The translations under genes and the position numbers were made by a program. A stretch of DNA of 64,000 bases from a virus (Duplodnaviria; Caudoviricetes), in the IMG/VR virus record IMGVR_UViG_3300036868_000046, positions 1 to 64,000 of that record. One strand, written 5' to 3'. Positions 8,228 to 52,812 of the stretch are shown in pieces. The notes beneath the pieces are model-generated. The model was given only the letters and a program-made list of their open reading frames with translations, searched no databases and was not told the origin of the DNA. Positions within the stretch are counted from its first letter, which is position 1. The number at the start of each line of letters is the position of its first letter.

Positions 8228-10471
8228 TAACCCCGAAGCAAGTCGCCGATGCTGCGGCCGGGAACCCGCTGCTGCAGGTCTTAGAGATGAAGATCGACGC
8301 GGCGCTCAGGCAAGCAGCGGACGAGAACTACTGGCCGTGCACGGTCGACCTTCGCGGTTTCGATAACGTCGCCGAGCAAGTCGCGATGAAGTACCGCGCG
8401 GCCGGTTGGCACGTCAACATCTTCCACTACCGCCGTGGCGGGTACTTCTTGGAGCTGGCGGCCCGCCACGACCGCATCCCTGACCGAAAAGGAGATGGTC
8501 ATGCATGACTTCAAGTTCCTGCGCACCGCCCAAGGGGAGGCGAGCCATGCTGCATGGTGATCCGAACCTCAAGGACGGTGACCACGTCCGCTGGGTGAGC
8601 GGCATATGTCCAGCCAACACCGTTGTTGGCTGGCTGCGCGGCGACGAGATCATCGTCGAGTACGACACGTTCGCTTCACCTCATTTATTAAGGGGTAAGG
8701 CTTTCACGCTGCCCACGACGGGCAGGCTGGACCACCACCCCATCGCCAAGCTCTGCCACCGCATCGCGGCGGGGGGCGCGTACGACGGGCTGACGGCCGA
8801 GCAGTGCTTCGTGGCCTTCCAGGCGGCGCAGCAGGGTGCGTATGGGTTCGAGGGACGGCCCATGCCCGAGGATGGCCCGCGACCGGCGTCCCTCACCCCT
8901 GCGCAGCTCGCCGTCGCACGTGAGCTGTGGAGCGCGAAGCTGCGCGCCAAGATCGCAGCGGCGCGGGCATCCGAGCCGCGCGTGCTCGTCGATCTCGACC
9001 TGGATGGCCTATGACCAACAAGGAAGGTGGAGCGCCTATGAGCTGCTGCTGGGACGTCTGGTGTGTCGACTGTGCCACGAGGCTCGGAGTCAACGATGCG
9101 AACCACCGCGTCGTCGAGATGCGCATGCTCGTGAAGCATGCGAAGACGATCGAGATGCTCGGAGCCATCCAGGGCGAGATGCTCGAGAAGACGTTGAGCT
9201 ATGCGCCATTGTATGTCGAGCTCAATGGCATCACCATCGAGCCGATCTGGTTCCGTGTTCACGCCGGGCATCACCTCGTGCCGATCAACGAATACGGCGA
9301 GCTCGACAAGGGCGAGGAGAGCGGTCGGGCCGAGGACGATGAGCCATTCTGAAAAAGCGACCGTGAGACCTGGGTAAGGACATCCGCTACCACGCCTCCG
9401 TCCTGTATGGTCCACGGGAACAGCAGGAGGGATGACATTTGACCCGGTTCACGATCGAGCAGTACGACAAGGCGATCCAGCATCTGCAGGACGCCAGGAC
9501 CCAGCTCGCGCCCGACGGACACGGCTGTCACTGCTGCGGGGGCAGCGGTCACCAGGCGTTCGAGTGCGGCCACAACCCGCTCGTCGCCATGCAGATGTGC
9601 GAGATGATCACCAAGCGGGCCGTGGAGCTCCACGAGGCGCTCCACGACACCACAACAGGGATCTGTGACCTGTTCAAGCTCGCGAGACACAGCGACCAGA
9701 GCATCGAGCAGCGGAACCTGACCGTCATGGCGGCAGCCGCTGACGAAGACATGCAGGAACTACTGGTCACGCTCCACGAGTTCCTGCACTCCCTGGCGGG
9801 CATGAACATGTACATGGGCATGCAGCTCGGGCCGGCTCGGGTGGTGCTGCCGTGAGCTCCAAGCTATGGAGCGACCACCAGATCGTCCTGTTGCTGACGG
9901 TCGATGGTGAGCATTTCCGCCTCTTCATCTTCGCCCCAGACGACGAGAAGTCAGGTCCGTCCGTCGCAGTCCACCGGAAGGGGCGTGATGCGATCGGTGA
10001 CCCGTGCTGGAATGCGGTCTCTAACCAAAGGGCGCTGTCCCTGTCGCTGGTTGCGCTGGCGCGATTCGCCTTCGTGGCGTGCGTCGGAGCTCCGCATCAT
10101 CGGTGCGAGATCAAGCGCTCAGAGACCGGGCTGACGTACTACGAGCTCGACCTCGGCAACTTCTCTACCAAGGATGACATGCACGGTCATCTCCATGGCG
10201 AATGACCGTGGGTAGGAAACTTCGACCGCTTGCCGAGTGCTACGACCTGATCGAAGTCCGTGCGATTCGACTCGTCCGCTTGCACGTCGCCGGTCGTGAG
10301 CCGATGTCGAGCGCCGCCGCGAGGCGGAACCGCGAGCAACGTGACAAGGCGTTCGATCGCCTGGTCGCGGCAGTCGAGGAGCGCGACCGCGCTGCGATGG
10401 CCCATGAGGAACGGTGCGTGTTCCGGTCCAAGGCTGCGGCCACGCGTCGTCGGAACGGCGGCTCAAAGTAG
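8224..10471 (+). CDS. Small hypothetical ORFs (8224-8508, 8547-9014, 9011-9352, 9439-9855, 9852-10205, 10202-10471)
   Basis: Coupled ORFs with RBS-like motifs. 9439-9855 carries a CHCCGGSGHQAFEC zinc-knuckle-like motif. Confidence 0.55.
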
Positions 10472-10538
10472 CTCAGAGGAGTCTGAGACCTCCGGTCTTC
10501 GCAAGGCGGCGATCGGATACCGAGAAAGGAGATGTTTC

Positions 10539-12392
10539 ATGGGAAGTATCTGCGTCTACGAGTATGGCCTCATGCCGCCCAGCGAGGGAGCGGCGATAGT
10601 CGATGGCCAGATGTTCAAGGCACACCGCTACTACAACGTGCTCATCGAGATCGAGCATGCACGTCGTCTCGCAGTCCGCACCGCGATGTCCAGCCACGCC
10701 GACCTCGTCCCGCTCGAGGCCGAGCTCGAGAAGCTGGTCGCCGAGCAGGACGCGGCGAGGACGGCCATCAAGGCCGGTCGCAAGGCAACGCGATCCAAGT
10801 CGGAGAGCGCCGAGCAGCGCCAGGCCGTCCGGACCCTGGGTGAAAGGGTCAAGGAGCTCCGCCGGCTCACCAAGGCCGCCAGGACGGCCGTGCGCGAAGA
10901 CCCCGAGATCGCGGCCAAGATCGAGGCCGCCAACGAGGAGGCCAAGGTCAAGTGCAAGCAGGCCCGCGCCGCGTGCGGGGTCTACTGGGGGACCTACCTG
11001 CTCAAGGAGCAGGCCGCCGACGCCGCGCGCAAGAGCGTGACGCCGCCCAGGTTCGGGCGGTGGACGGGGGAGGCGAAGGTCTCCGTCCAGATCCAGCACG
11101 GCCTGTCGCTCGACAGGCTGTTCTCCGGGGGCAGCCAGCAGATCCAGATCGATCCTGTGCCGGAAGAGGCGTTCCTGATCCGCGGAGCTCGCCGGCGGGC
11201 GCGCGCATGCCTCACCAACCTCCGCATGCGGGTCGCGTCCGAGGACGGCAAGCCGGTGTGGGCGCACTGGCGGATCTGGCTGCATCGCCCGCTGCCCGAT
11301 GGCGCCCTGGTCAAGGTCGCCACGGTGTCGCGGCGCAACGTCCACTGCTCGCGCCAGCAGTGGGTGATGCACATGACGGTCGACACGAGCGCCTGCAAGC
11401 AAAGGGTCCGGCCCGACGGCGGGGTGCTGGCCCTGAACCTCGGCTACTGCCTCACCGAGGAGGGGTTCATCCGGTCGGGATACGCGGTCGGGGACGACAG
11501 CCACGAGCAGGAGATCCTCGTGGTCAAGAGCGACTATTACCGGACGGACCACGTCCGGCCCGATGGCATCCCGAATCCGGGTCGCGGCGTCAAGCAGAAC
11601 TACATCGTGAACGGCCTCGGCAAGAGCGCCAGCATCGAGGGGTTCAGGGACAAGAACCTGAACGAGTTCCTGGCGACGATCGGGCCGTGGCGGGAGACGA
11701 TGGCGAGCGCCGGCAAGCTGCCGGAGTGGTTCGTCGAGCGCACCAAGACGATCCACGCCTGGCGCTCTCAGCGGCGCCTCTACGCGCTCCACACGGTATG
11801 GGGCAAGCAGCGGTTTGATGGGGACCAGGCCGGGTGGGATGTGCTGGTCGCCTGGCGCGCACGCGATGCCCACCTTGACGCCTACCAGGCCGCGCTCCGC
11901 ATCTCCTCGCTCCGCGATCGCCGCGAGGGCTACCGCATCCTGGCCTCGCGGATGGCCAAACGCTACCGGACGCTCATCATCGACGACTTCGACCTGCGGA
12001 CGTTCATCCGGACGCCGGCGGCGGAGAGCGAGCGGCCAAACGTCGAGGTGTACCGGAAACAGCAGTTCACCGCGGCGTGCTCCGAGCTGCGCCAGGTGTT
12101 CGCCAACGCGTTCGGTGCCGAGAACGTCGTGAAGCTGTCGAGCAAGGACGTCTCGCGGCTCTGCCCGTGCGGCAACATCGTCGAGGTGTCCCCGGCGCGC
12201 ATCCAGGTGTGCGGGGCGTGCGGCATCTCCTGGGACCAGGACGCGAACGCCTGTCGCAACCTCCTGCGCATGCACGCCGCCCAGGGCGCCGGACCCGCGA
12301 AGGACGAGAAGAAGCCGAGCCGGTCGCAGCGGCTCCGATCGAACAAGCGCAAGGGCAAGGGCGATGCGCAGGCCAGCGAGGCGACGCAGTGA
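10539..12392 (+). CDS. Cas12m-like (type V-M / V-U1) CRISPR effector, about 617 aa, with a non-canonical RuvC
   Basis: AGGAG RBS. N-terminal YEYGL...AHRYYNVLIEIE, long coiled coil, GVYWGTY, RWTGEAKVSVQ and HRPLP. RuvC-I VLALNLGY (Asn in place of Asp), RuvC-II LIIDDFD (Asp in place of Glu), zinc finger CPCG..CGACG, RuvC-III WDQDANA. Size and motif order match my recollection of Cas12m; the cognate array is nearby. Confidence 0.8.
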   Translation: MGSICVYEYGLMPPSEGAAIVDGQMFKAHRYYNVLIEIEHARRLAVRTAMSSHADLVPLEAELEKLVAEQDAARTAIKAGRKATRSKSESAEQRQAVRTLGERVKELRRLTKAARTAVREDPEIAAKIEAANEEAKVKCKQARAACGVYWGTYLLKEQAADAARKSVTPPRFGRWTGEAKVSVQIQHGLSLDRLFSGGSQQIQIDPVPEEAFLIRGARRRARACLTNLRMRVASEDGKPVWAHWRIWLHRPLPDGALVKVATVSRRNVHCSRQQWVMHMTVDTSACKQRVRPDGGVLALNLGYCLTEEGFIRSGYAVGDDSHEQEILVVKSDYYRTDHVRPDGIPNPGRGVKQNYIVNGLGKSASIEGFRDKNLNEFLATIGPWRETMASAGKLPEWFVERTKTIHAWRSQRRLYALHTVWGKQRFDGDQAGWDVLVAWRARDAHLDAYQAALRISSLRDRREGYRILASRMAKRYRTLIIDDFDLRTFIRTPAAESERPNVEVYRKQQFTAACSELRQVFANAFGAENVVKLSSKDVSRLCPCGNIVEVSPARIQVCGACGISWDQDANACRNLLRMHAAQGAGPAKDEKKPSRSQRLRSNKRKGKGDAQASEATQ

Positions 12393-13327: not shown

Positions 13328-13380
13328 GGTGACCGCGAGGATCCTGGAGCTTGAACGGCTCAAGCCGTACAAACGAAGGC

Positions 13381-13928
13381 ATGAAGGTCACCGCCGAGAC
13401 AATCACGGACGAGCAGATCCTGCAGATGCAGGAGGAAACCGTTGAGCTGTTGGGAAGGTTCCCACCGTGCACAACGATCGCGCTGGCGCGGCCGGTTGGA
13501 CGCGATCGGCGTGCTCAACACAAGGTTGCACGCACACGCAAGCTCTACCTTGCTGCGCGTGAGGCATGCGCAGCCCTGTGGAACGCTCGGCACGGAGACG
13601 AGCCGTGAGCATGCACACCCGCAAGACCCTCGCCGGTCGCCTGCATCAGCTGCACTGCCTGATGTGCTTCGACGTCGTGCGCAATGTTCCCAAGGCCAAC
13701 CCGTGTCGCTGCCGCTGCCATCGGGTCACCGCCGAGACGATCACGGACGACCAGATCCGTGAGCTCTGCAACTCCTGCGAGATCTCCTTCGACCGCCTGT
13801 ATCGGGCGGTTCATCGCGAGCGGCCTGTAGGGGAGAGCCAGGCCGCGTACGATAGGCAACGGCTGTACCACAGGGGGCTCGCCGCCGCGGCCTGGAACGC
13901 CCGCCACGGAGACGAGCCTATCGAGTGA
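13381..13928 (+). CDS. Two paralogous small ORFs (13381-13608, 13605-13928) sharing VTAETITD.QI..L and A.WNARHGDEP
   Basis: Shared motifs at both DNA and protein level; a third relative lies at 49119-49340. Confidence 0.65.
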
Positions 13929-40966: not shown

Positions 40967-41903
40967 GGTCCCTCGTCTTCGTCGTCCTCGGGATCTTCTT
41001 CGTCGTCCTCTTGGGGCTCCTCTTCCTCTTCGGACTCCGCCCCCTCTTCGGGCTCATCGAGCGTGATGTCCTCGAGCAGAGACTCGGCCTTGGACGCCAG
41101 GTCCATCCAGACGCCCACCGCGGCGACCGCCTGGGGGTCGTGCGCCACGCGTTTCTTGAGGTCGAGCATGAGCGCCCGGCCGGACACGATGAGCGCGGCG
41201 AACACGGCCGCACTGTCCGCGTGCAACACGTCCTCGCTGCCCTCGGCGAGCGCCGCGATCGTCGCGTCGATGTCGTCGATCTCTTCGAGCATCGACCCCA
41301 CGAAGGGGAGAAGCTCGTCGGCAAGGAACTGCCGGACGTCCGAGGCGGGCACGAGCGGCCCATTGGGTAGCCGCGCGACCACGGCTGCGAAATCGGTCTT
41401 GAGTTGGTCAATCATGGGGTCTCCTTGGGGGTCAGTGTCTCTTGAACGGAGCGATCGAACTCATCCGCCTCCGCACGAAGCTCGGCGTAGGCCCTGTCCC
41501 ATGCTTGAACGAGCGCGGTATGGGACCTGAACTGCTTGGGGTCGGCGCACTCGTAGCGGTTGCACCGAAGGACCGGCGTGGATCCCAGCGGGATCTCGAT
41601 GCCCGGCGTGGGGTAGCAGTAGTGGTGATGCTCCTCGTGGAACACCGGCAGCGCCGTCACCACGGTCCCATCCGGCGTCACACGCGCGAACCGCGACGCC
41701 GGCAGTCCATGGACCGGGAGGAGCACGCCGCTCGGCGTCGCAGCGTCTGCCTGGATGATGAAGTGATGGTAGTGCGAGCACCCGGCGGTGCAGAGCGACG
41801 GCCGCGGCCGGATCACGTCGCTCGACGAGGCGGTTGGTTGATGGTCTGGCGGCAGGTCGTCATCGTCATGGAGGTCTAACCTTGGCACCCTCCCATCATG
41901 CAC
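40963..41903 (-). CDS. Two hypothetical ORFs (40963-41415 with an acidic tail; 41412-41903 Cys/His-rich)
   Basis: Coupled open frames. Confidence 0.55.
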
Positions 41904-42020
41904 ACCTCAGTGGGAACTGCGTGGCGATTGCATGGGGATTCGATGGGAATTTCATGGGGGATCTGCGCACCTCCCTTGGCCATGGGGCTGCCTTCCATGG
42001 CCAGCACCCCACAGGTAGAC

Positions 42021-42315
42021 GGCCTAACGGTGACACCAGCGGACGTGAGGCGCCTCATTTTCGCCCCGTTAGGGGCCTCACGGAGCCACCGTTAGGCGCC
42101 TCACGATGAGGTAATTCTACCGTTAGGGCGCCTCACGGTCGCCCAGGGCAGGCTAACCGCCCCACAGGGGCCAGGAGGGGCCAGGAGAGGCCCCCCAGCG
42201 CCGCCAGGCCCGCGCCGGGCCAGTCCCCCGGACTCGCGCCGGGGCCAACCCCAAGGCTCGCCCTGGCGACCTGGGCACCGTTAGGCGCCTCACGGTGAGG
42301 AATTCCTACGCGTAG
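42021..42315. repeat. Iteron/operator-like repeats CCGTTAG(G)GCGCCTCACG
   Basis: Direct copies near 42066, 42089, 42120 and 42278; partial inverted copy at 42021; palindrome TGAGGCGCCTCA near 42047; located at the divergent strand switch. Confidence 0.75.
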
Positions 42316-42514
42316 AACGCGACGCGGCTCAAGTACGCGAACTCCCACGAGGTGCCACCCGGACTTCCCAGTGAGACTCCCCTACGCGTAGGGACGGACC
42401 CGGTTTCATAGTGAGGTCAGGCTGCAAACGCTTGAAAGCTTCAAGGCTGGATCTGGCAAGCTCGATGCAATACCGTTCTTCGACCGGGCGAGGTTGCCCC
42501 GGGAAGGAGACGAG

Positions 42515-43298
42515 ATGCTGAATCTGGTGAGCTTCGAATCGTGGGACGACGTCCTCGCCGCCGCTCGGCGCGGCGATCGACTCTGGTACCACGCGCCACT
42601 CGACACCGCACCCCGGGCCATCGTGGTGCAGACGGTGTTCGAGAACGGCAAGATCCGCATCGATCCGATGTCCGCATCCGCAGACAACTTCACCGCGGAC
42701 TGCGGCCATTTGCCCCGCTTCCGGCGCATGGGGTAACCCTCCGCCCCCCCCGGTCGTGAGGGTTCGGCGAGCGCCCGACACACGTCGGGATCTCGCCAAG
42801 GTCTCACGGTCTCTCTGACAACCGAATAGCCCGAGACTCACGCCAGAGCAGCATTCCCCGGTGTCGCGCATGCCATGCGCGCACCGGGCGCAGTCGAAAC
42901 GCCGGACCACTCCCTTACCCGGAGCGCCGTGCTGCCGCGGACGTGGTCGTGAACGGGCAAGCAAGTTGTGACTTGCGAGAGCGGCGCGCGCCGATGCGCG
43001 CCCCTCATGGAGGTTACAAATGAGAGTGCGCTTTCCGAGCATCGCCGATGTCGCGCAGAACTTGCGCGACATCAATGCCAACGTCGAGGGGGAGTGCGAC
43101 GTTCGGCTGTGCGTCTGGACAGATGGCACGTGGTGCGTGCGCTGGGGAGATGTGCAGTTCGATCCCAGCAGCGCCCCGTACTGTGGGGCCAGCGGTGTTC
43201 CCGGTGTCGTCGGCGGCAAGGTGCAGCGGTTCGACGCGCGCGCGATCGCGCGCGATCTGCTGGACCAGTGCGCAGAAATGCGCGCCCAGGACGAGTAG
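42515..43298 (+). CDS. Small early ORFs (42515-42736, 43020-43298)
   Basis: GGAG RBS motifs; open frames. Confidence 0.6.
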
Positions 43299-43360
43299 GC
43301 GAAACCGCGCCGAGCGCGGTCTGCAGGCCACCCCAAACCCTGCACTGACGAGCCTGGGGA
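43296..43360 (+). ncRNA. Type II hammerhead ribozyme HHR1 (predicted cleavage after 43321)
   Basis: TAGGC-GAAA-CCGCGC/GCGCGG-TC-TGCAGG/CCTGCA-CTGACGA-GCCTG; loop I CCCC can pair with the 3' GGGG. Confidence 0.9.
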
Positions 43361-43435
43361 GAACCTCGCAATGTCCACAAAAGACTACAACCTCGATCAA
43401 TCCCAACTACGGGCCAACACAGTGAGATCGCGCTT

Positions 43436-43687
43436 ATGATGGAGCTTCTATGGTCTGAGGGATGGTCCGATGGTGTGACGTCCGCCGTAGTGTACCAGGC
43501 CAAATCCTGGCACGGTGCGTACCGAATCGTCCGCGCGGAGGGCGGATGCCGTGCGTGGTATACGCAATGGCGGGGGGCGTTACCGCTGCAGACTATCAAG
43601 CTCGGCGATGCCCCGGACATGGGTCGCGCGCGAGCGCTATGCCAGTCTCATGCTCATGCCGTCAGATACGGATCTGACCCAAGGTAG
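43436..43687 (+). CDS. Small hypothetical protein
   Basis: Its stop codon is the TAG of the partial hammerhead copy at 43685. Confidence 0.55.
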   Translation: MMELLWSEGWSDGVTSAVVYQAKSWHGAYRIVRAEGGCRAWYTQWRGALPLQTIKLGDAPDMGRARALCQSHAHAVRYGSDPR

Positions 43688-43720
43688 GCGAAACCGCGCC
43701 GAGAGCGCGGTCTGCAGGTC
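43685..43720 (+). ncRNA. Truncated hammerhead 5' half (duplicate of HHR2)
   Basis: GGC-GAAA-stem III-GTC-TGCAGG is present, but its own stem I 3' strand and CTGATGA are missing. Confidence 0.6.
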
Positions 43721-43725
43721 AGGAG

Positions 43726-43793
43726 TAGGCGAAACCGCGCCGAGAGCGCGGTCTGCGGGGGGGCACCCCTACCCCGCACTGATGAGCCAGGGG
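43726..43793 (+). ncRNA. Type II hammerhead ribozyme HHR2 (cleavage after 43753)
   Basis: Stem I TGCGGGG/CCCCGCA, core CTGATGA, stem II GCC/GGC, pseudoknot CCCCT/AGGGG. Confidence 0.9.
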
Positions 43794-43818
43794 ACAGGCC
43801 GACACCAGGAGAATCGCA

Positions 43819-44103
43819 ATGTTCGTCATTGTCTACGCCAATGAGGGCCCCGAACAGGGTACCGTATACCTGAAGTGGGAGCTTCGTGATAACGAGCCAA
43901 TGGAGGCGCGCAAGTTCGCCGACCGAGTAGCCGGTTTTTTGGGGACAGAGGTGGTGGAGCCTTCGGGATACATCCCGAACTGCTGTGGTGATATCAGGGT
44001 GGAGTTCACCGAGCACGAGCCTACGGTGGATGCCGATGGGCGCTACCTGGGATCCGTCTGCATATGGAGCGGCGAGAGCTACTACTTCTCGCGGGATGCA
44101 TGA
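43819..44103 (+). CDS. Small hypothetical protein
   Basis: AGGAG RBS downstream of HHR2. Confidence 0.65.
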   Translation: MFVIVYANEGPEQGTVYLKWELRDNEPMEARKFADRVAGFLGTEVVEPSGYIPNCCGDIRVEFTEHEPTVDADGRYLGSVCIWSGESYYFSRDA

Positions 44104-44154
44104 AAGCTTACGATGACGGAGGCGGAGTACCACGGGGGCACGGGGCACGTGGAC

Positions 44155-44223
44155 TAGGCGAAACCGCGCAGTGAGCGCGGTCTGCAGGTGATGACGCCCT
44201 ACCCTGCACTGATGAGCATGGGC
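44155..44223 (+). ncRNA. Type II hammerhead ribozyme HHR3 (cleavage after 44182)
   Basis: Core intact; stem I TGCAGG/CCTGCA; short stem II (GC/GC); pseudoknot GCCC/GGGC. Confidence 0.8.
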
Positions 44224-44240
44224 TAAAGAGGAAGTCAACG

Positions 44241-46120
44241 ATGACACCGAAACACAAGCTCTGTGAGGCCATGTCCGAGTACGGCCTCACGATGGACTGG
44301 ACGTTCATCCCATTCCGGGGGGACCGCAAGGAGCGGCGCCTGCAGTGGGATATCACGCTGTATCACAGGAGTGCGCCCAGGATCGGGGATGACACCCTCC
44401 CAAACGACGTCATCGTAACGAGATACGAGGCAGGGATCGGTCACTGTCCCAGCTACCCCGCCTATGGCGGGGTACCCACCGTCGCACAAGATTCCGCCAT
44501 CGATTTCGAGGTGACCACAGGGTACCAGGCCCGCCCGCCACATGGCGGTGGTGCGGGTGACCGATTCGAGCGCGGAGCTCGGATCGATCCAGATGTCGCC
44601 GAAGTGATGCACAGCCTACTCCTGGATGCGGAGGCGATCGATCACGCCTCGTTCGAGGCGTGGGCGGAGGAGTTCGGCTACAACACCGACAGCCGGGCTG
44701 CAGAGCGCACCTACAAAGCGTGCCTCCGGATCGGGCTGGCCATTCGCGCCGCGGTGGGCGATGAGGCGTTGCGGGCCCTACGCTCCGCGGCGGAGGGCAT
44801 GTGAGACCCGCGAAAAGGTACGAGGTGGTTTGCCTCACATCGTTCGACCACGTCACCCCGGCACAGGAGGTCGAGATATGTGGTCGAACCAAGGTCATGC
44901 CCGAGCAGACCTTCCATTACGAGAATGGCCAGCGGATTGACCTCGGCAGTGCGCGGCGGCGCAAGGAGTTCATGGCGTACCATGCCGGGCGTTTTGCCAT
45001 CGCGGACTAGGGCCGTTGTGCCCATCGACACCATCACCCCAGCGGTGGTGGATCGACCGACACAACATCCACAGGACATGACATGACGAACAAGATCTAC
45101 AGCATCGTCCACAGCAACGGCATCACCGAGCGGCTGCCAGAGGGCAGCACGTACGCGGACGCGCTCGCCGCCGTCCGCGAGACGTACACCGACCCCGAGA
45201 TCGGTCACGACGGTGACATCGCGGATGGCGGCGATACTACTCTGGTGTGGCGAGACGAGGCGTCCGCCAGGGATGACGACGGCTGCTTTGCCGTTTGCTC
45301 GATCCGCGTGTCGCACCCCGAGCCGCCAGGCCGAGACGATCAGTCCGACATGCCAGAATTCATGCCCGTCCATGGACAGGGCTACGTGCGGCGAGCCTAG
45401 GCGGACCAGCCGACCATGCGGCGCGAACAATTGGACTCGTGGGTCCTGGCCCTGTGCAGCGAGGCGATGGCCGTCGACCCGATCGCCACCGAGTGCGTGA
45501 TCCGCGCACTGACCGGCGGCCACGAATCGTTTTGCCCGCAACCACATCCCTCCGAGCGCCTCCATCGTGCCGCCGCTGCATTTCTGAGGATCGCCCGCCT
45601 CTGACTCGGCGGCACGCCATCGCGGACTAGGGCCGTTGTGCCCATCGACACCATCACCCAACGGTGGTGGGTCGACCGACACAACAGCGGATCAAACAAC
45701 ATGACTAGCCATCGCGACCTCTATTTCCGGGGCAAGGCGGTACTCCCTCCGACGCAGCCCTCGGCGCCCGCCCCGGCATCCCTGCGCCGCGCTCCCGCGC
45801 ACGAGCGCCACCCCCGAACGGTTCCGACACATCCCGCACGGCAGATGTCCCCACTGTGGGCGCCGAGTCCACAATCCGCCGAGGTCCGCCTGGCCGACCT
45901 CGAGACTGCCCGGGTGGTGGTCCGACGCGCCAGCCTCGCCTACGCCATCCCGCCCATCGCGCCGGAGGCGCCGGTGTCGCACCCGGCGTATGTCCACGGA
46001 GAGGACCTCACCGCGCGAGATCACCGTGAGCCTTTCACGCTCGTGCGCGCGATGGGGTACGTTCTCGCTGTGGGCGCCCCTGGCGCCGGGCTGCTCTGGA
46101 TGCTGATCCACCGCCTATAG
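44241..46120 (+). CDS. Small early ORFs (44241-44804, 44801-45010, 45083-45400, ~45416-45604, 45701-46120 with a C-terminal TM)
   Basis: Open frames between HHR3 and HHR4; 45083-45400 is a paralog of 47220-47495. Confidence 0.6.
44996..45700 (+). repeat. Twice-repeated ~75-bp intergenic hairpin element (about 44996-45068 and 45616-45686)
   Basis: GCCATCGCGGACTAGGGCC-GTTGTG-CCCA-TCGAC-ACCATCACC-loop-GGTGGTGG..TCGA-CCGA-CACAAC in both copies. Confidence 0.8.
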
Positions 46121-46184
46121 GCGAAACCGCGCGGGCGAGCGCGGTCTGTGGGGGCTACCCCTACCCACACTGATGAGCCAGGGG
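46118..46184 (+). ncRNA. Type II hammerhead ribozyme HHR4 (cleavage after 46146)
   Basis: Stem I TGTGGG/CCCACA (compensatory), CTGATGA, GCC/GGC, pseudoknot CCCCT/AGGGG; the next RBS AGGAG follows. Confidence 0.9.
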
Positions 46185-46198
46185 ATTCAGGAGATCAC

Positions 46199-46848
46199 AT
46201 GCTCAAGGTCACGCAACGCATGATCAATGCCGTCGCCATCGCGACGGATGAGGCGAATCGCAAGATCGCCGCGGAACTGAACACATGGACCACGGGCCCC
46301 CGTGCCGGGTCCCAACAGGCCAAGGTCGGCACGCACCGCAGCGTGAAACACTATCGGCGCACGCTCGTCTCTCGTCACCCCGAGGTCACGGACGCGGCCA
46401 GGGTGAAGCTGTGAAGGTCACCACCCGTGAACAGTTCATCGCTTTGTTCGGCCGCGGGCGGCCGGAGGCGATGGAGTTCGAGAACTCCGTCATTCAGGCC
46501 ATCGAGCGCGAGCATTTGCCGGACGACGCGCTTGCTGTGGTAGATGGTGGCGATGGTTCCGCGGCGTATTGGGACTGGCTCGCGAGCCAGGTCGAGCCGC
46601 AGTGCACGTGTGAATGCGGTAAATGGTCTGGGACGCGGTGCCGTTGGGGAGGACAGCGGTCCGACACGGTCATCGTGGAGTTCATGCCGGAGGCCCTCCG
46701 GGCGAGCCACGTCGCCGCTGGAAACAGCGGCACGTACCCCCACAACGGGGCGGAGCGTATCCGCGTGTCGCGCGACTGCGCGCAGTGGATGCGCGAGGAG
46801 GACCCGGAGTGGTGCTCCGAAGTTCGCCATCTGGCTCCTCGTCGATGA
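46199..46848 (+). CDS. Two small ORFs (46199-46414, 46411-46848)
   Basis: AGGAG RBS and GTGA coupling. Confidence 0.6.
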
Positions 46849-47170
46849 CACGTGGGGTGTCGTCCGGTTCGCGGATGGCCGCGCCGACGTGCGCGCCGCC
46901 GTCGAGCGCGTCGCCGAGCTGTATCGCATCGGCGGAACGCCAGAGCAGTTTCGCGCCGCCGCCGCCGACGACGCCAGGGCCGCCGACGACGCCAGGGCCG
47001 CCGACGACGCCAGGGCCGCCGACGACGCCAGGGCCGCCGACGACGCCAGGGCCGCCGACGACGCCGTCGCCAGGGCCGTCGACGCCGCCAGTTTCGCCTG
47101 GAACTGGGACGCCGCCTGGGTAGTGGCAGCGCGTGACAAGCTCCTTGAACTGCTCGGGGATTGCCCATGA
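46817..47170 (+). pseudogene. Start-less fragment of the Ala-rich gene at the window start, with a 5.8-copy 18-bp tandem repeat GCCGCCGACGACGCCAGG (46961-47065)
   Basis: 144 bp with 4 mismatches to 2-145; fused out of frame to the end of ORF 46411-46848. Confidence 0.65.
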
Positions 47171-47219
47171 CCACCCGCCCGCCCGGCCAAAGCGGACCAA
47201 CGCCCGAGCTACAATAGGA

Positions 47220-47495
47220 CGCATGAAAAACTACCGAATCATCCATAGCCACGGGCCAGTCGAGGTGCTGCCGGCGGGCAGCACGTACCAGGATGCACTC
47301 GACAGAGTTCGCATGGCCTATACGCGTGCCGTCGTTGGTCACGATGGCGATATCTCGCAAGGCGGGCAGGTGACGCTCGCGTGGCGAGACGAGGAGACCG
47401 CCGCGGCGGACGACGGTAGCCGCGCAGTGTGCATGATCACGCTGCATACCGTAGACGTGCCCGCGGTGATCGCCCTCTGGATGTTCTCGTTCTAG
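47220..47495 (+). CDS. Small hypothetical protein, paralog of 45083-45400
   Basis: Shares Y.I.HS.G..E.LP.GSTY.DAL..VR..Y....GHDGDI..GG..TL.WRDE. Confidence 0.7.
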   Translation, partial: RMKNYRIIHSHGPVEVLPAGSTYQDALDRVRMAYTRAVVGHDGDISQGGQVTLAWRDEETAAADDGSRAVCMITLHTVDVPAVIALWMFSF

Positions 47496-47560
47496 GCGAA
47501 ACCACGCGATTCTTGCGTGGTCTGCGGGGCATGCCCTACCCGCACTGAAGATGCCAGGGC
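47493..47560 (+). ncRNA. Type II hammerhead ribozyme HHR5 (cleavage after 47522)
   Basis: Stem III CCACGC/GCGTGG (compensatory), stem I TGCGGG/CCCGCA, core CTGAAGA plus an extra T, pseudoknot GCCCT/AGGGC. Confidence 0.8.
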
Positions 47561-47579
47561 CAAAAAGGAAGAGAAGAAC

Positions 47580-50500
47580 ATGACCCTCACAAGACGGGAT
47601 TGCGCAGCGGACTTACCGGAGGGGACGGACCCCCTCATCGTCGATCTGCACCTGACGGCCACGGCCGCCGACCGTGTTCGATCGCGATGCCAGACCGTGA
47701 GCAGCCACGCGCGCGCGTGGCTCCAGCTGGAGCCGGACGACGATGGCGCGGAGGCGCGGAGGCGGCTCCGCGCGCTGCTGGCCATCGAGCTGGGCGGCAC
47801 CGGCGGCCCCATGGGATTTGGGGTCGACGGTGGCAATCGCACCGCGCGGATGTCGTGGGCGGCGCGACTCGGCAAGGGCCGCCGCCACGCCTCCGATGGC
47901 CCAGCGTGGGACGATGCGGTCCGCCGCGTGGCCACCTCCCTCGGGGAGGGCGAGGTCACCCCTGCCGATGTCGGTGAGATCGCCGGGCGATGTGGCCCGG
48001 ATGACCTCGAGTGGCCGCTCGCCTACGCGCTGCGCCGCGCGCATGCCTGCCGCCTGGATGTGGACCAGGCGGCGCTGTGGGCGACATGCGCGCGGGTGTC
48101 CGCGACGCTCGCCGAGCCGGACTCCGGCGCTGGCCGCCTCGCCGCGCGCTACTCTCTGCGTACCAAGCCCCGGCTGCGTACGGCTTCCCTGTCACTTCGG
48201 TACCAGGATCCGGATCGGGCAGCTGATGCCGAACCAGGCCTCAGCTCGCTGAGTGGGGCGAACTCCCTCATCGATGAGCTCGTCGAGGACTTCACGGGGG
48301 ATCCTGCCCCCGATTTCCTCGAGCTCGAGGAAAAGCGCGTCCAGACGTGGGTCACGTCCTCGCCCGACTGTGGCGAGGCACAGCTGCGCATCACCTGCGA
48401 CGCGCCCATGAATCAGTACACGGTGGAGCTGCAAAGCCGGGCAGCGCTGCACCCGGCAGCGCTGCGCCTCATCGAAGCCGCATGGATCCTCCGTCACGCG
48501 GGTGATGAGATCTGGACCACGGACGTCATCGTGGCCCACGAGGCCATGACCGAGATGCACCCGGATATGCTGCGCGCCGAGCGCGCGGCGTGGGATATCG
48601 CCGCCGATGCGGTCTGATACCCCCCGCTGCGAGCTCCCCATCAGGTTCCGCAGGGTCAGTGCCGGGGTGTACTGCTCGTACATGGAGGTCGGTGGGACGC
48701 CGGTGTTCACCATCGTGTCGGCATCGGTCAGGGAACGATGCTGGCTCACGACGCACGCGTCGCTGCGCACGCTGGCCCCGTGCGACTCCCTGGAGGACGC
48801 TTGTCGCCAGGTCAACGCGCTGGTCGCCGACGCGCTGGTGAATGCTTTCCGGGTCGTCGCCGCGTGGTCGCACGAGGCGTTCATCGCCTCCGAGCTCGCC
48901 GCCGCGCGGCGGGAGAGGCGCGCCCTCCTCGTGGAGCACGTCATGGACGTGCTACCTCAATCGTCCATGCCTGACGCGCCCGACCATCTGCGACCGGAGG
49001 TCGTGCGCGCGCTCGCCGAGCGCGTGGTCGACGCCATCGCACCGGCGCTCTGCCCTCGCTGACCTCCCAAGGAGATACCAATGACCCATGCTTATCCGGT
49101 CGACACCCAAGGAGCGGAATGCTTACCGCTAAGTCTATCACTGACGACCAGATCCGCGAGTTGCGCGCGACGCTACTCCGTGAATCGGGCAATCAACTCA
49201 CCTCGGAAACGGATGCGACCGGCATGGCTCTCTGTGATCTCGATAAGTACCCTCCCCACCTACGGGAGGATGCCCAGATCATCAAGGACATCGCTCGAGA
49301 GCGCTGCGTCGAAATCATCAATGATCGAAGTGGCCGTTAACCGGATAGGCATGCAATGACCGCTTACATCGTTGCCTTCGCGCTGATCAGCGCCACCGCC
49401 TGCGCCTCCCAGGAGGCCCCGCTCGTGGGGGAGGTCCCAACGTGCTCCGGTCGCGTAGGTCGGAGCTCCGGCACCCTTCGGGTACACGGCGAGGTCGAGT
49501 GTCTGGACACGCAAGTCCTCACGCTGACGGTCGTCTCGTTCTCCGATGTGGGTGCCCCGTCACCCCTGGTGACGCAGACCTTCCAGACCGGATGCCCAGG
49601 CACCATCGACCTCGTCATCGCGGTGGCCGACACCGGCACGATCGTCACGGGCATGACCATGACGCCGGAGTCCGGCGGCATGGTGACGACGTGTCCGCTC
49701 ACGGCTCCGTGAGCCGATAGCGAGGCGCCACGCAACTTGAACCTTTCAGGTGTACAAAAGGGCATGGCCTGGTCCGATTCACAAGGTCGGTAGGTCTGCG
49801 CTCCGAATTCGGAGAGGAGTCACTGTGACTACTACGACCGGCATACCCAGCATCCAGACACTGGTCATTGATGTTCTGCGGGATATGTGGCCCGTGGAAT
49901 GGTCCACGGCCGGGCGGATCGCGAACGCGATCGTCAACCGTCCATCGCCCGAGCCAGGGGACCTCGACATCAGCGAGAAGTACATCGCCGCCACATGTCG
50001 CCGAATGGTGCGCGATGGCCGCCTGCTGTCCGGCATGCACGGTTTCGCCTTGCCCCTGGAACGCTATGCCGTTCGCCCGGACGGGATGCTGTACGAGTTG
50101 GTGCGCATCGATCCGGGGTCCGATATCGTCATCATCATCGGACGGATGAGCCACGAAGAGGCGCTCGTATGCTCGACCTCGCTCAATGAGCACGATCGCA
50201 AGGTACGCGCCCTCCGCCAGGGCGGCAATCCGTGAGACCGGAACGGCCATTCACTCACACCGACGTGGTGCGCCTGGCGCGGCGTGCCTTGGCTCGCGCC
50301 CACGGTGATGCTGACAAGGCAGGTCGGTACGCGGCCGATATGGCCGACCGATATGAGTCGGCCAAGTGGGAGGCCATCATGCACTACATCCGCGACGGCC
50401 ACATCTAACCCCGGAGGAGTTTTCTCGATGATAGAGATGAGTCTACCTATCAACAACCAGTTCACGATCGAGGTCAAGTTGTGCGACCAGCGTCTGCATG

Positions 50501-52055: not shown

Positions 52056-52812
52056 ATGACCCGAACCCTGACACTGACCCTGACCATCGCCCTGTCCGCC
52101 TGCGCCTCGCGGCCCCCGGTCATGCTCGACCGCGTGACCGCCTGCGAGGCGCAGGCGAGCGCCTGGTGCCCCAAGTCCGGCATGGACAGCCCCGGGTGCC
52201 CCATCGTCTACCTGCAGCTGTTCTGTGCCCACGTCGACCTCGATCGGGGCATCCCGGACGACATGCAGGACGCCTGTCTCACCGCCATCGCCGATACGCC
52301 CGCCCCCATGCCGGTACCCGCAGCCTGCATGGCGACCTGGGCCATGACCCCGGAGACTCCATGACCGACATACGAGATCGTCTCAAGCAGCAGATCGCGC
52401 ACCTGGACCGCGAGCAGCGCCGCCTGACGCGCCTGCTCCAGTACCTGGCGATCCATCAGGCCGCGTCCTCATCCACCCCGGAACACGCCCTGGCGATCGC
52501 GTTCCGGCGCAAGACCCCGGTGGACGTGTGACCCCGCCCTGGATACAGGCACGGATCGCTCGCGCCGAGCGCATCCGTTCGGCGGCCATCCACCTGCTCG
52601 ACCTCGCTGCTTCCAATCGTCCGTTTACATTGGCCGAGATCTCCAGGATGGCGGGCATCATGGCGCCAAACGGCAAGCCCGCCTTCGAACTGGCCCGGGA
52701 GACCTACCGGCGAATTTACTGGGTCGGCACCAATGCCGAGTGCTACGCGGAGGCTGCCGGCCTGCTCCGTGACGGCTGGATACCCGGAGAACAGATCCTG
52801 CTCAGGTGTTGA
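52056..52812 (+). CDS. Cys-rich lipoprotein (52056-52364) and two small ORFs (52361-52531, 52528-52812)
   Basis: Lipobox LSAC followed by several Cys; coupled ORFs. Confidence 0.55.

Follow-up and report, generated by a model that had tools for sequence, protein, structure and literature searches.

Why would a virus set several copies of one self-cleaving RNA between the genes of a single operon, and is this what the DNA described here contains? The stretch analysed, hereafter the window, is the first 64 kb of the IMG/VR virus record IMGVR_UViG_3300036868_000046 (Caudoviricetes), a complete genome of 78,782 bp with direct terminal repeats and a CheckV completeness of 100%. An earlier note had claimed that five type II hammerhead ribozymes (here HHR1 to HHR5) punctuate a cassette of small genes in this window. 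Five such elements do lie within 4.3 kb, all on the + strand and bounding blocks of one to five genes, and we consider it likely that they self-cleave co-transcriptionally, splitting the operon into messages that would be separately stable and separately translated.

Identification of the five hammerheads

The five claimed loci were recovered by a search with the Rfam type II model RF02276 (Hammerhead_II; gathering score 37 bits, E values for the whole 64-kb window and both strands), which returned exactly five matches in the window, two of them above the cut-off. HHR2 (matched at 43727-43796, 44.8 bits) and HHR3 (44156-44228, 40.5 bits) exceed the gathering score; HHR4 (46119-46187, 32.0 bits), HHR1 (43297-43359, 32.0 bits) and HHR5 (47494-47565, 29.9 bits) fall below it, with E of 0.014-0.05, and are paralogues of the first two. 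No other Rfam family matched the 64-kb window at E<=1. Over the full 78,782-bp genome the same model found the five copies, a half copy at 43686-43723 (14.8 bits) and no more. A regular expression for the core gave no further well-formed copy on either strand, and a permissive, unfiltered search of 41.9-52.9 kb with our own model gave no extra relics; the scores under that model were 73 bits for HHR1, 76.2 for HHR4, 65.4 for HHR5 and 25.5 for the half copy.

Core, helices and covariation

All five copies share one layout, namely TAGGC, GAAA, a 6-bp stem III, the UC cleavage site, a stem I of 6-7 bp, CUGANGA, GCC (GCA in HHR3) and a 3' tail. CUGANGA, GAAA, the A...U pair that closes stem III and GUC are invariant in all five, giving the core positions C3 U4 G5 A6 N7 G8 A9, G12 A13 A14, the A15.1-U16.1 pair and H17 at the cleavage site, and the topology is that of the type II permutation, in which loops close stems I and III and stem II is open. 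Stem III is paired at six of six positions in every copy, and the helices carry compensatory changes: stem I reads UGCAGG/CCUGCA, UGCGGG/CCCGCA or UGUGGG/CCCACA, and stem III reads CCGCGC/GCGCGG or CCACGC/GCGUGG. A pseudoknot of 4-5 Watson-Crick pairs between loop I and the 3' tail, beginning 0-1 nt past stem II, can be drawn in each of the five, with CCCC(A/U) facing (U/A)GGGG in three copies and GCCC(U) facing (A)GGGC in two. The compensatory changes quoted in the earlier note for stem I, stem III and the pseudoknot were all present on re-parsing, and an independent parse arrived at the same values for the predicted new 5' ends (43322, 43754, 44183, 46147 and 47523) and for the lengths of the units between them (432, 429, 1964 and 1376 nt). 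Its core formula, in which CUGANGA leads directly into stem II, conceals an extra U in HHR5 (CUGAAGA-U-GCC).

The covariation is extensive. In a set of nine sequences (the five copies and four relatives) 95.8% of pair cells hold a standard pair and six pairs change on both sides, a level reached by none of 500 column shuffles, and slid controls all drop to 26-51%. In a set of 26 sequences the paired cells amount to 95.9%, and double-sided change is seen at 17 of the 21 pairs; these 17 include the five pseudoknot pairs, 83.8% of whose cells pair, and the model used to align the 26 sequences omitted the pseudoknot. Taken by helix over the two sets, stem III is paired in 100% of cases, stem I in 96-98% and stem II in 85-97%. 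The loops diverge freely, while the core bases and the stems are intact in the five full copies.

The extra U of HHR5 is shared more widely. HHR5 and nine relatives carry one extra nucleotide (two in one copy) between A9 and G10.1, and the form CUGANGA-U-GCC occurs twice in contig L155, twice in contig L158 and three times in G006 (IMGVR_UViG_3300009148_000001), a complete virus genome of 86,334 bp with direct terminal repeats, in which a fourth copy has two nucleotides, UA, inserted there. The three G006 copies with the extra U differ in N7, stem III and pseudoknot sequence, and the nucleotide is a recurrent, conserved variant rather than damage. The hammerhead of chrysanthemum chlorotic mottle viroid (CChMVd) tolerates an extra base between A9 and G10.1, with U the best and fastest of the four (PMC3705267). 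RF02276 penalises an extra nucleotide at this point, and therefore this conserved sub-lineage, which scores below the Rfam cut-off, would escape routine annotation and is hence under-annotated. When the U variant was sought with a 17-mer scan, 14 of the 15 contigs found were chance matches and the fifteenth was G006; a genome-wide DNA pattern for the 5' half of the hammerhead gave six matches in bacterial genomes, five of which were chance half-matches and not ribozymes.

Two further kinds of variant were seen outside the virus. At L008:2407-2471 and L152:114-179, in unrelated contigs, CCGANGA stands in place of CUGANGA (U4 to C) with stems and pseudoknot otherwise intact, and this too is a recurrent core variant. 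A 1.9-kb metagenome contig (L149:3-1929) carries four type II hammerheads at a spacing of 0.2-0.8 kb, without the pseudoknot and with very short stem I loops.

Position in the operon

Gene calls based on G+C content at third codon positions (GC3) place leftward genes up to 41412-41903 and rightward genes from ~42515, and the Joint Genome Institute (JGI) gene caller independently gives the same rightward genes. The array starts ~0.8 kb downstream of the divergent intergenic region, within the rightward operon. That gap (~600 nt) contains four or five copies of CCGTTAGG(C/G)GCCTCACGG at ~42024-42300, some of them inverted, which are likely to be the operator sites of a lysis-lysogeny switch, and the whole gap (41904-42514) is presumed to be the promoter/operator region of the rightward transcript; no terminator-like site was found within 41.5-50.5 kb. 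The earlier description of an early polycistronic mRNA cut by type II hammerheads agrees with the ribozyme family, the covariation, the strand of the genes and the precedent in other phages, whereas the word 'early' is read from the position of the cassette only.

Each copy begins on a stop codon. The opening TAG is the stop of G0, G7 and G11 at three complete copies, of G1b at the half copy and of a 14-codon open reading frame at HHR3, just as had been claimed. TAG makes up only 22% of stops genome-wide, and the stop codon is part of the repeated unit. Downstream, AGGAG, GGAG or GAGGAAG followed by ATG is found 11-22 nt past each copy, with leaders of 49-65 nt, which bears out the ribosome binding site noted earlier after every complete copy. 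In the predicted upstream product a single base would separate the 3' end from a hairpin of -12 to -14 kcal/mol, and the predicted downstream product would begin on the stem I hairpin. The same placement recurs on unrelated contigs: at 12 of 12 hammerheads of the sub-lineage an open frame closes 1-10 nt ahead of the ribozyme's first A, frequently with an overlap that reads TAGGC, TAAGGC or TGAGGC, and at 10 of the 12 a start led by a Shine-Dalgarno sequence follows 11-35 nt downstream. The order stop codon, hammerhead, Shine-Dalgarno sequence, ATG is thus general in the sub-lineage.

The genes between the ribozymes (Table 1) say little about function, as the cassette proteins are all ORFans except G3, which matches phrog_4273 (function unknown), and searches of Pfam, PHROGs and the ESM Atlas assigned no function to any of them. 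The repeat in G10 consists of five or six exact 18-nt tandem units at 46966-47057; in its best GC3 frame G10 has no canonical start from the G9 stop (46848) to a GTG at 46889, which may mean that G10 is frameshifted, is fused to G9 or starts in an unusual way. Two other candidates in the region were tried and rejected: a ribozyme scar at TAGGCGGACC, 3' of the G5 stop (the + strand has 17 occurrences of TAGGCG), and unit 1 as a structured non-coding RNA (RNA structure z -0.31).

Table 1. Ribozymes, RNA motifs, genes and the control region in and around the array (positions in the window).
Feature	Position	Strand	Description
Divergent intergenic region	41904-42514	.	Between leftward gene 41412-41903 and first rightward gene; GC3 and JGI calls
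G0	43020-43298	+	92 amino acids, ORFan; TAG stop is the first three bases of HHR1
HHR1	43296-43362	+	Predicted cleavage after C43321; N7 is C; pseudoknot CCCCA/UGGGG
22-codon open reading frame	43371-43439	+	Unit 1; ATGA overlap with G1b
G1b	43436-43687	+	83 amino acids; weak support (GC3 0.67, not called by the JGI caller)
Half hammerhead	43685-43725	+	TAGGC, GAAA, stem III, GUC, UGCAGG, then directly TCAGGAG
HHR2	43726-43795	+	Predicted cleavage after C43753; 7-bp stem I; pseudoknot CCCCU/AGGGG
G2	43819-44103	+	94 amino acids
HHR3	44155-44225	+	Predicted cleavage after C44182; stem II GGC/GCA with one mismatch; pseudoknot GCCC/GGGC
G3	44241-44804	+	187 amino acids; phrog_4273
G4	44801-45010	+	69 amino acids
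Second motif, copy A	45005-45085	+	TAG-GGCC, GUUGUG, CCCA, UCGA, variable distal hairpin, UCGA, CCGA, CACAAC, ~20 nt, G5 ATG
G5	45083-45400	+	105 amino acids; paralogue of G11
G6	45416-45604	+	62 amino acids
Second motif, copy B	45625-45703	+	Followed by G7 ATG; TAG here stops no gene
G7	45701-46120	+	Start 45701, or 45845 by JGI; TAG stop is the start of HHR4
HHR4	46118-46186	+	Predicted cleavage after C46146; stem I UGUGGG/CCCACA; pseudoknot CCCCU/AGGGG
G8	46199-46414	+	
G9	46411-46848	+	
G10	~46889-47170	+	18-nt repeat coding ADDARA
G11	47223-47495	+	TAG stop is the start of HHR5
HHR5	47493-47562	+	Predicted cleavage after C47522; stem III CCACGC/GCGUGG; N7 is A; extra U between A9 and G10.1; pseudoknot GCCCU/AGGGC
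G12	47580-48617	+	345 amino acids, ORFan

A related array and signs of gene turnover

How the array has changed over time can be approached through G006, which by its proteins is a true relative of this virus: amino-acid identity is 66-76% for structural proteins, 45% for the ParB-like protein and 29-69% for late genes, and three genes left of the switch are 33-39% identical (tblastn). The five hammerheads of G006 all lie in the stretch from the switch to the ParB-like gene, which matches the position of the array here. The shared early genes stand in the order G-2, G2, G8, G12, 49119-49340 and 52056-52364 in the virus, and in G006 they run G8, G2, ribozyme, G-2, ribozyme, homologue of 52056-52364, ribozyme, G12, ribozyme, homologue of 49119-49340, ribozyme. 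The G2 orthologue (57% identical) likewise has a hammerhead 3' of the gene, the G12 orthologue is 38% identical, and the gene content of the array region is otherwise largely different. The comparison of cassette content between related genomes that the earlier note had proposed thus yields five hammerheads among shuffled and largely different genes, and since the position of the array is kept while the gene order is shuffled, the array is older than its contents. One of the G006 hammerheads (80936-80999, L160:5916-5979) reads CUGAUG-CC; with three nucleotides of the core or stem II gone, it is probably inactive.

Within the virus itself, the half copy in front of HHR2 retains just the 5' strands of stems I and II, along with GAAA, stem III and GUC, and the next ribozyme follows; both 3' strands, loop I and CUGANGA are missing. 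Its first 31 nt are exactly those of HHR2. Such a remnant is incapable of cleavage on its own, and we read it as the scar of an internal deletion or unequal exchange and as mild evidence of turnover, to which the duplication of G4 codons with a second hairpin motif (described below) and the paralogy of G5 and G11 may be added as mild evidence too. The sequences would permit the half copy to be completed in trans by the 3' half of HHR1; this candidate was rejected because HHR1 can form its local stem I hairpin in competition, with pairing just as good and without an entropic cost, and the half copy is treated as a scar.

These signs of turnover raise the possibility that the hammerheads act mainly on the DNA level, as portable recombination joints of ~65 bp for the gain, loss and reordering of cassettes, with RNA cleavage secondary. 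The half copy resembles a deletion scar, G5 and G11 are paralogous, the second repeat has moved four codons of G4 and the G5-G6 pair is flanked by direct repeats; G006 has reordered the shared genes with hammerheads between most of them, and a homologue of G9 adjoins a hammerhead in contig L158. If they were pure DNA repeats, however, neither a catalytic core nor compensation within three helices and a pseudoknot would have been kept, and eight contigs of the same virus from several samples have one identical arrangement. With one ribozyme per one to five genes, moreover, breakpoints will adjoin ribozymes by chance, so that their coincidence does not discriminate. The earlier suggestion of recombination joints fits the half copy, the repeat around G5-G6 and the shuffling in G006; as the main function of the elements we regard it as unlikely, although such a role may well exist in addition to RNA cleavage.

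Proposed cleavage of the transcript and its alternatives

What would the elements do in the RNA? To the observed motifs, their strand and covariation, their placement from stop codon to ribosome binding site and the conservation of the array in a relative, we add by inference the transcription of the array as a single RNA, its cleavage, the fate of the ends and a benefit. A rightward polycistronic RNA would start in the divergent control region at ~42 kb and include the five ribozymes. On leaving the polymerase each motif of ~65 nt would fold into the hairpins of stems III and I, the 3-bp stem II and the loop I/tail pseudoknot of 4-5 bp, and would be cut after GUC, whereupon the products would part because they are joined by the 3-bp stem II only. 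The upstream message would end 23-27 nt past its own TAG, on the terminal hairpin and with a 2',3'-cyclic phosphate; the downstream message would carry a 5'-OH on the stem I hairpin, a fixed leader of 49-65 nt and an exposed Shine-Dalgarno sequence. The operon would in this way be resolved, without host RNases, into the four units given above and a distal remainder, and the stability and translation of each unit would be freed from the upstream context. It is plausible that the 5'-OH and 2',3'-cyclic-phosphate ends, together with the terminal hairpins, stabilise the messages.

Hammerhead cleavage leaves 5'-OH and 2',3'-cyclic-phosphate ends, which the ligase RtcB joins. The units might for this reason be closed into circles, either by a host RtcB or by the hammerhead reaction run in reverse, and the circular RNAs would then be translated or persist as stable non-coding RNAs; closure had been suggested by the earlier note for an RtcB-type ligase. 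RtcB is common in bacteria, judging by control genomes, and, as stems I and III are each a self-contained hairpin, closing any unit into a circle would restore a complete, chimeric hammerhead. No RtcB is encoded by this virus, however, the halves are held by the 3-bp stem II alone, which favours product release, and unit 1 is not unusually structured (the z-score given above). In such arrays Perreault et al. detected no spliced or circular product despite a search for them (PMC3088659). Circular RNAs are unlikely here; the suggestion finds no support, and we give this outcome very little credence.

Several points weigh against self-cleavage in this operon. Three of the five copies (HHR1, HHR4 and HHR5) lie under the Rfam gathering cut-off, the 3-bp stem II of HHR3 has one mismatch and HHR5 carries its core-adjacent insertion; a scan of 41.5-50.5 kb gave no recognisable (sigma-70 consensus) promoter. 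A more distant relative, L023, has a homologue of G3 in a tightly packed operon with no ribozyme, and therefore punctuation is not required for such genes as such. The benefit of punctuation by ribozymes is also unproven, the purpose of bacterial hammerheads being undefined according to a 2019 review (PMC6765202).

Taken to their end, some of these points would make the copies neutral or decaying selfish passengers, with weak or no cleavage and no benefit to the virus: the half copy is dead, the G006 copy at 80936 lacks three core nucleotides, and the low Rfam scores and the undefined role of bacterial hammerheads (PMC6765202) would fit as well. Against this stands the integrity of the five full copies, in which no invariant core base is lost and the stems are fully paired, although the loops have diverged, as well as the persistence of the array in a relative whose flanking proteins are 33-76% identical and a placement that is always on the sense strand between stop codon and ribosome binding site. 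Passengers of this kind are unlikely, and a little less credible than recombination joints. Self-cleavage within the transcript is the reading we prefer, and as part of it the five elements are likely to be active, or recently active, type II hammerheads.

A second intercistronic RNA motif

Hammerheads are not the only structured repeat in the operon. A second motif occupies the same kind of slot, from a stop codon to the next Shine-Dalgarno sequence and ATG, and its two copies in the virus (A and B in Table 1) flank the G5-G6 pair; the repeat carries the last four codons of G4, which are also present at copy B. Four copies are known, at 45005-45085 and 45625-45703 here, at L160:6565-6648 in G006 and at L155:85-172 (minus strand). 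The G006 and L155 copies keep GGGC, GUUGUG/CACAAC and the internal loop CCCA/CCGA, while the sequence of the distal stem changes and still pairs. Across three independent sequences pairing reaches 98.7% of cells, with double-sided change at three pairs, and the G-U pairs would be mismatches on the opposite strand. In G006 the motif lies directly upstream of the G12 orthologue, where the virus has HHR5. No Rfam family matches the motif, and a 14-mer scan for it gave chance matches only.

Self-cleavage, cleavage by an RNase or mere stabilisation of the message may all account for such an element. Earlier ribozyme classes were discovered through an association of this kind with hammerheads. That the motif is a new class of self-cleaving ribozyme, or a dedicated recognition site of an RNA-processing enzyme, is in our view a doubtful proposition, if one rated slightly above the recombination joints; if true, it would mean that this virus lineage punctuates one operon with two interchangeable kinds of RNA cutter.

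The virus and its host

The genome (G+C ~66%) encodes a GH25 lysozyme (endolysin) with a peptidoglycan-binding domain and a tyrosine integrase; the uncultivated virus is therefore a temperate one, and its host a bacterium with peptidoglycan. Assemblies of this virus come from at least four JGI samples and two runs of the Sequence Read Archive (SRA), and samples 3300036866, 3300036869, 3300036870 and 3300036995 of JGI contain it. It is remote from GenBank phages: megablast of the 5-kb array region gave no match, tblastn with the endolysin gave a sole match of 28% identity to a Thermoanaerobacterium phage, and with the ParB-like protein none. A search of IMG/VR for related loci with G3, G12 and the ParB-like protein as queries found nothing.

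Two other features of the gene content may be recorded. The 710-amino-acid protein at 10260-12392 has a weak match to a Cas12f1-like TNB domain (E 2e-4), and L023 has a homologue of it, of 591 amino acids, adjoining a ParB-like gene. The virus has two pairs of small paralogous genes, G5 (45083-45400) with G11 (47223-47495) and 13351-13608 with 49119-49340, and of these the G5/G11 pair sits within the ribozyme array.

Comparison with known systems

Structured intercistronic elements that divide a phage transcript are familiar from other contexts. In phage T7 the early polycistronic mRNA is cut by RNase III at structured intercistronic sites into hairpin-ended messages, and the work is done by a host protein enzyme that leaves 5'-phosphate and 3'-OH ends. 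The elements described here resemble the T7 sites in being structured, in lying between cistrons and in defining hairpin-ended messages, with no family relationship between the two; unlike in T7, the RNA would here cut itself, with 5'-OH and 2',3'-cyclic-phosphate ends as the predicted outcome. Synthetic insulators of the RiboJ type, engineered from a satellite-RNA hammerhead and inserted between a promoter or an upstream gene and the ribosome binding site, offer a second parallel, as self-cleavage gives the downstream gene a uniform, short, structured leader and makes the upstream context irrelevant. The elements of the virus differ from these in being natural, of type II and overlapping the upstream stop codon.

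The closest precedent is the work of Perreault et al. (2011, PLoS Comput Biol, PMC3088659), who described type II hammerheads with a loop I/3' tail pseudoknot clustered in prophages, among them a triple array around ardA in Agrobacterium tumefaciens; they showed that the pseudoknot is needed for fast type II cleavage and that triple arrays undergo cleavage both in vitro and within E. coli, and proposed that long phage transcripts are processed in this way. The present array agrees with theirs in having several hammerheads within a few kb, on the sense strand among small phage genes, in the type II topology with its pseudoknot, in flanked genes that vary between genomes and in the proposed role, the conversion of a long transcript into operon- or gene-length mRNAs. 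It differs in its five copies and a half copy, compared with the three tested there, in that all five start on TAG, and in coming from a virus very distant from GenBank phages, whose array can be compared directly with that of G006. Three type II hammerheads of Desulfovibrio vulgaris, also in a phage-like gene neighbourhood, cleave in vivo (PMC8782182), and these members of RF02276 share the core, the helices, the pseudoknot and the kind of neighbourhood with the copies described here. Against the norm of that family HHR1, HHR4 and HHR5 stand apart, with 30-32 bits under a cut-off of 37.

Considering the question with which we began, the purpose of intergenic self-cleaving ribozymes in phages has been open since 2011, and this locus is a good test bed for it rather than an answer. 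The array is compact and uniform, with the stop codon inside the ribozyme, a hairpin-capped tail of 23-27 nt and a leader of 49-65 nt; a complete relative has the same array position with shuffled cassettes; and an unclassified RNA element can replace the hammerhead upstream of the same gene (G12). Set beside the phage arrays whose layout has been known since 2011, the locus is a clean new example and not a new kind of system, and what it adds to them is the G006 array with its shuffled cassettes, the recurrent extra U of HHR5 and a second hairpin RNA in the same slots.

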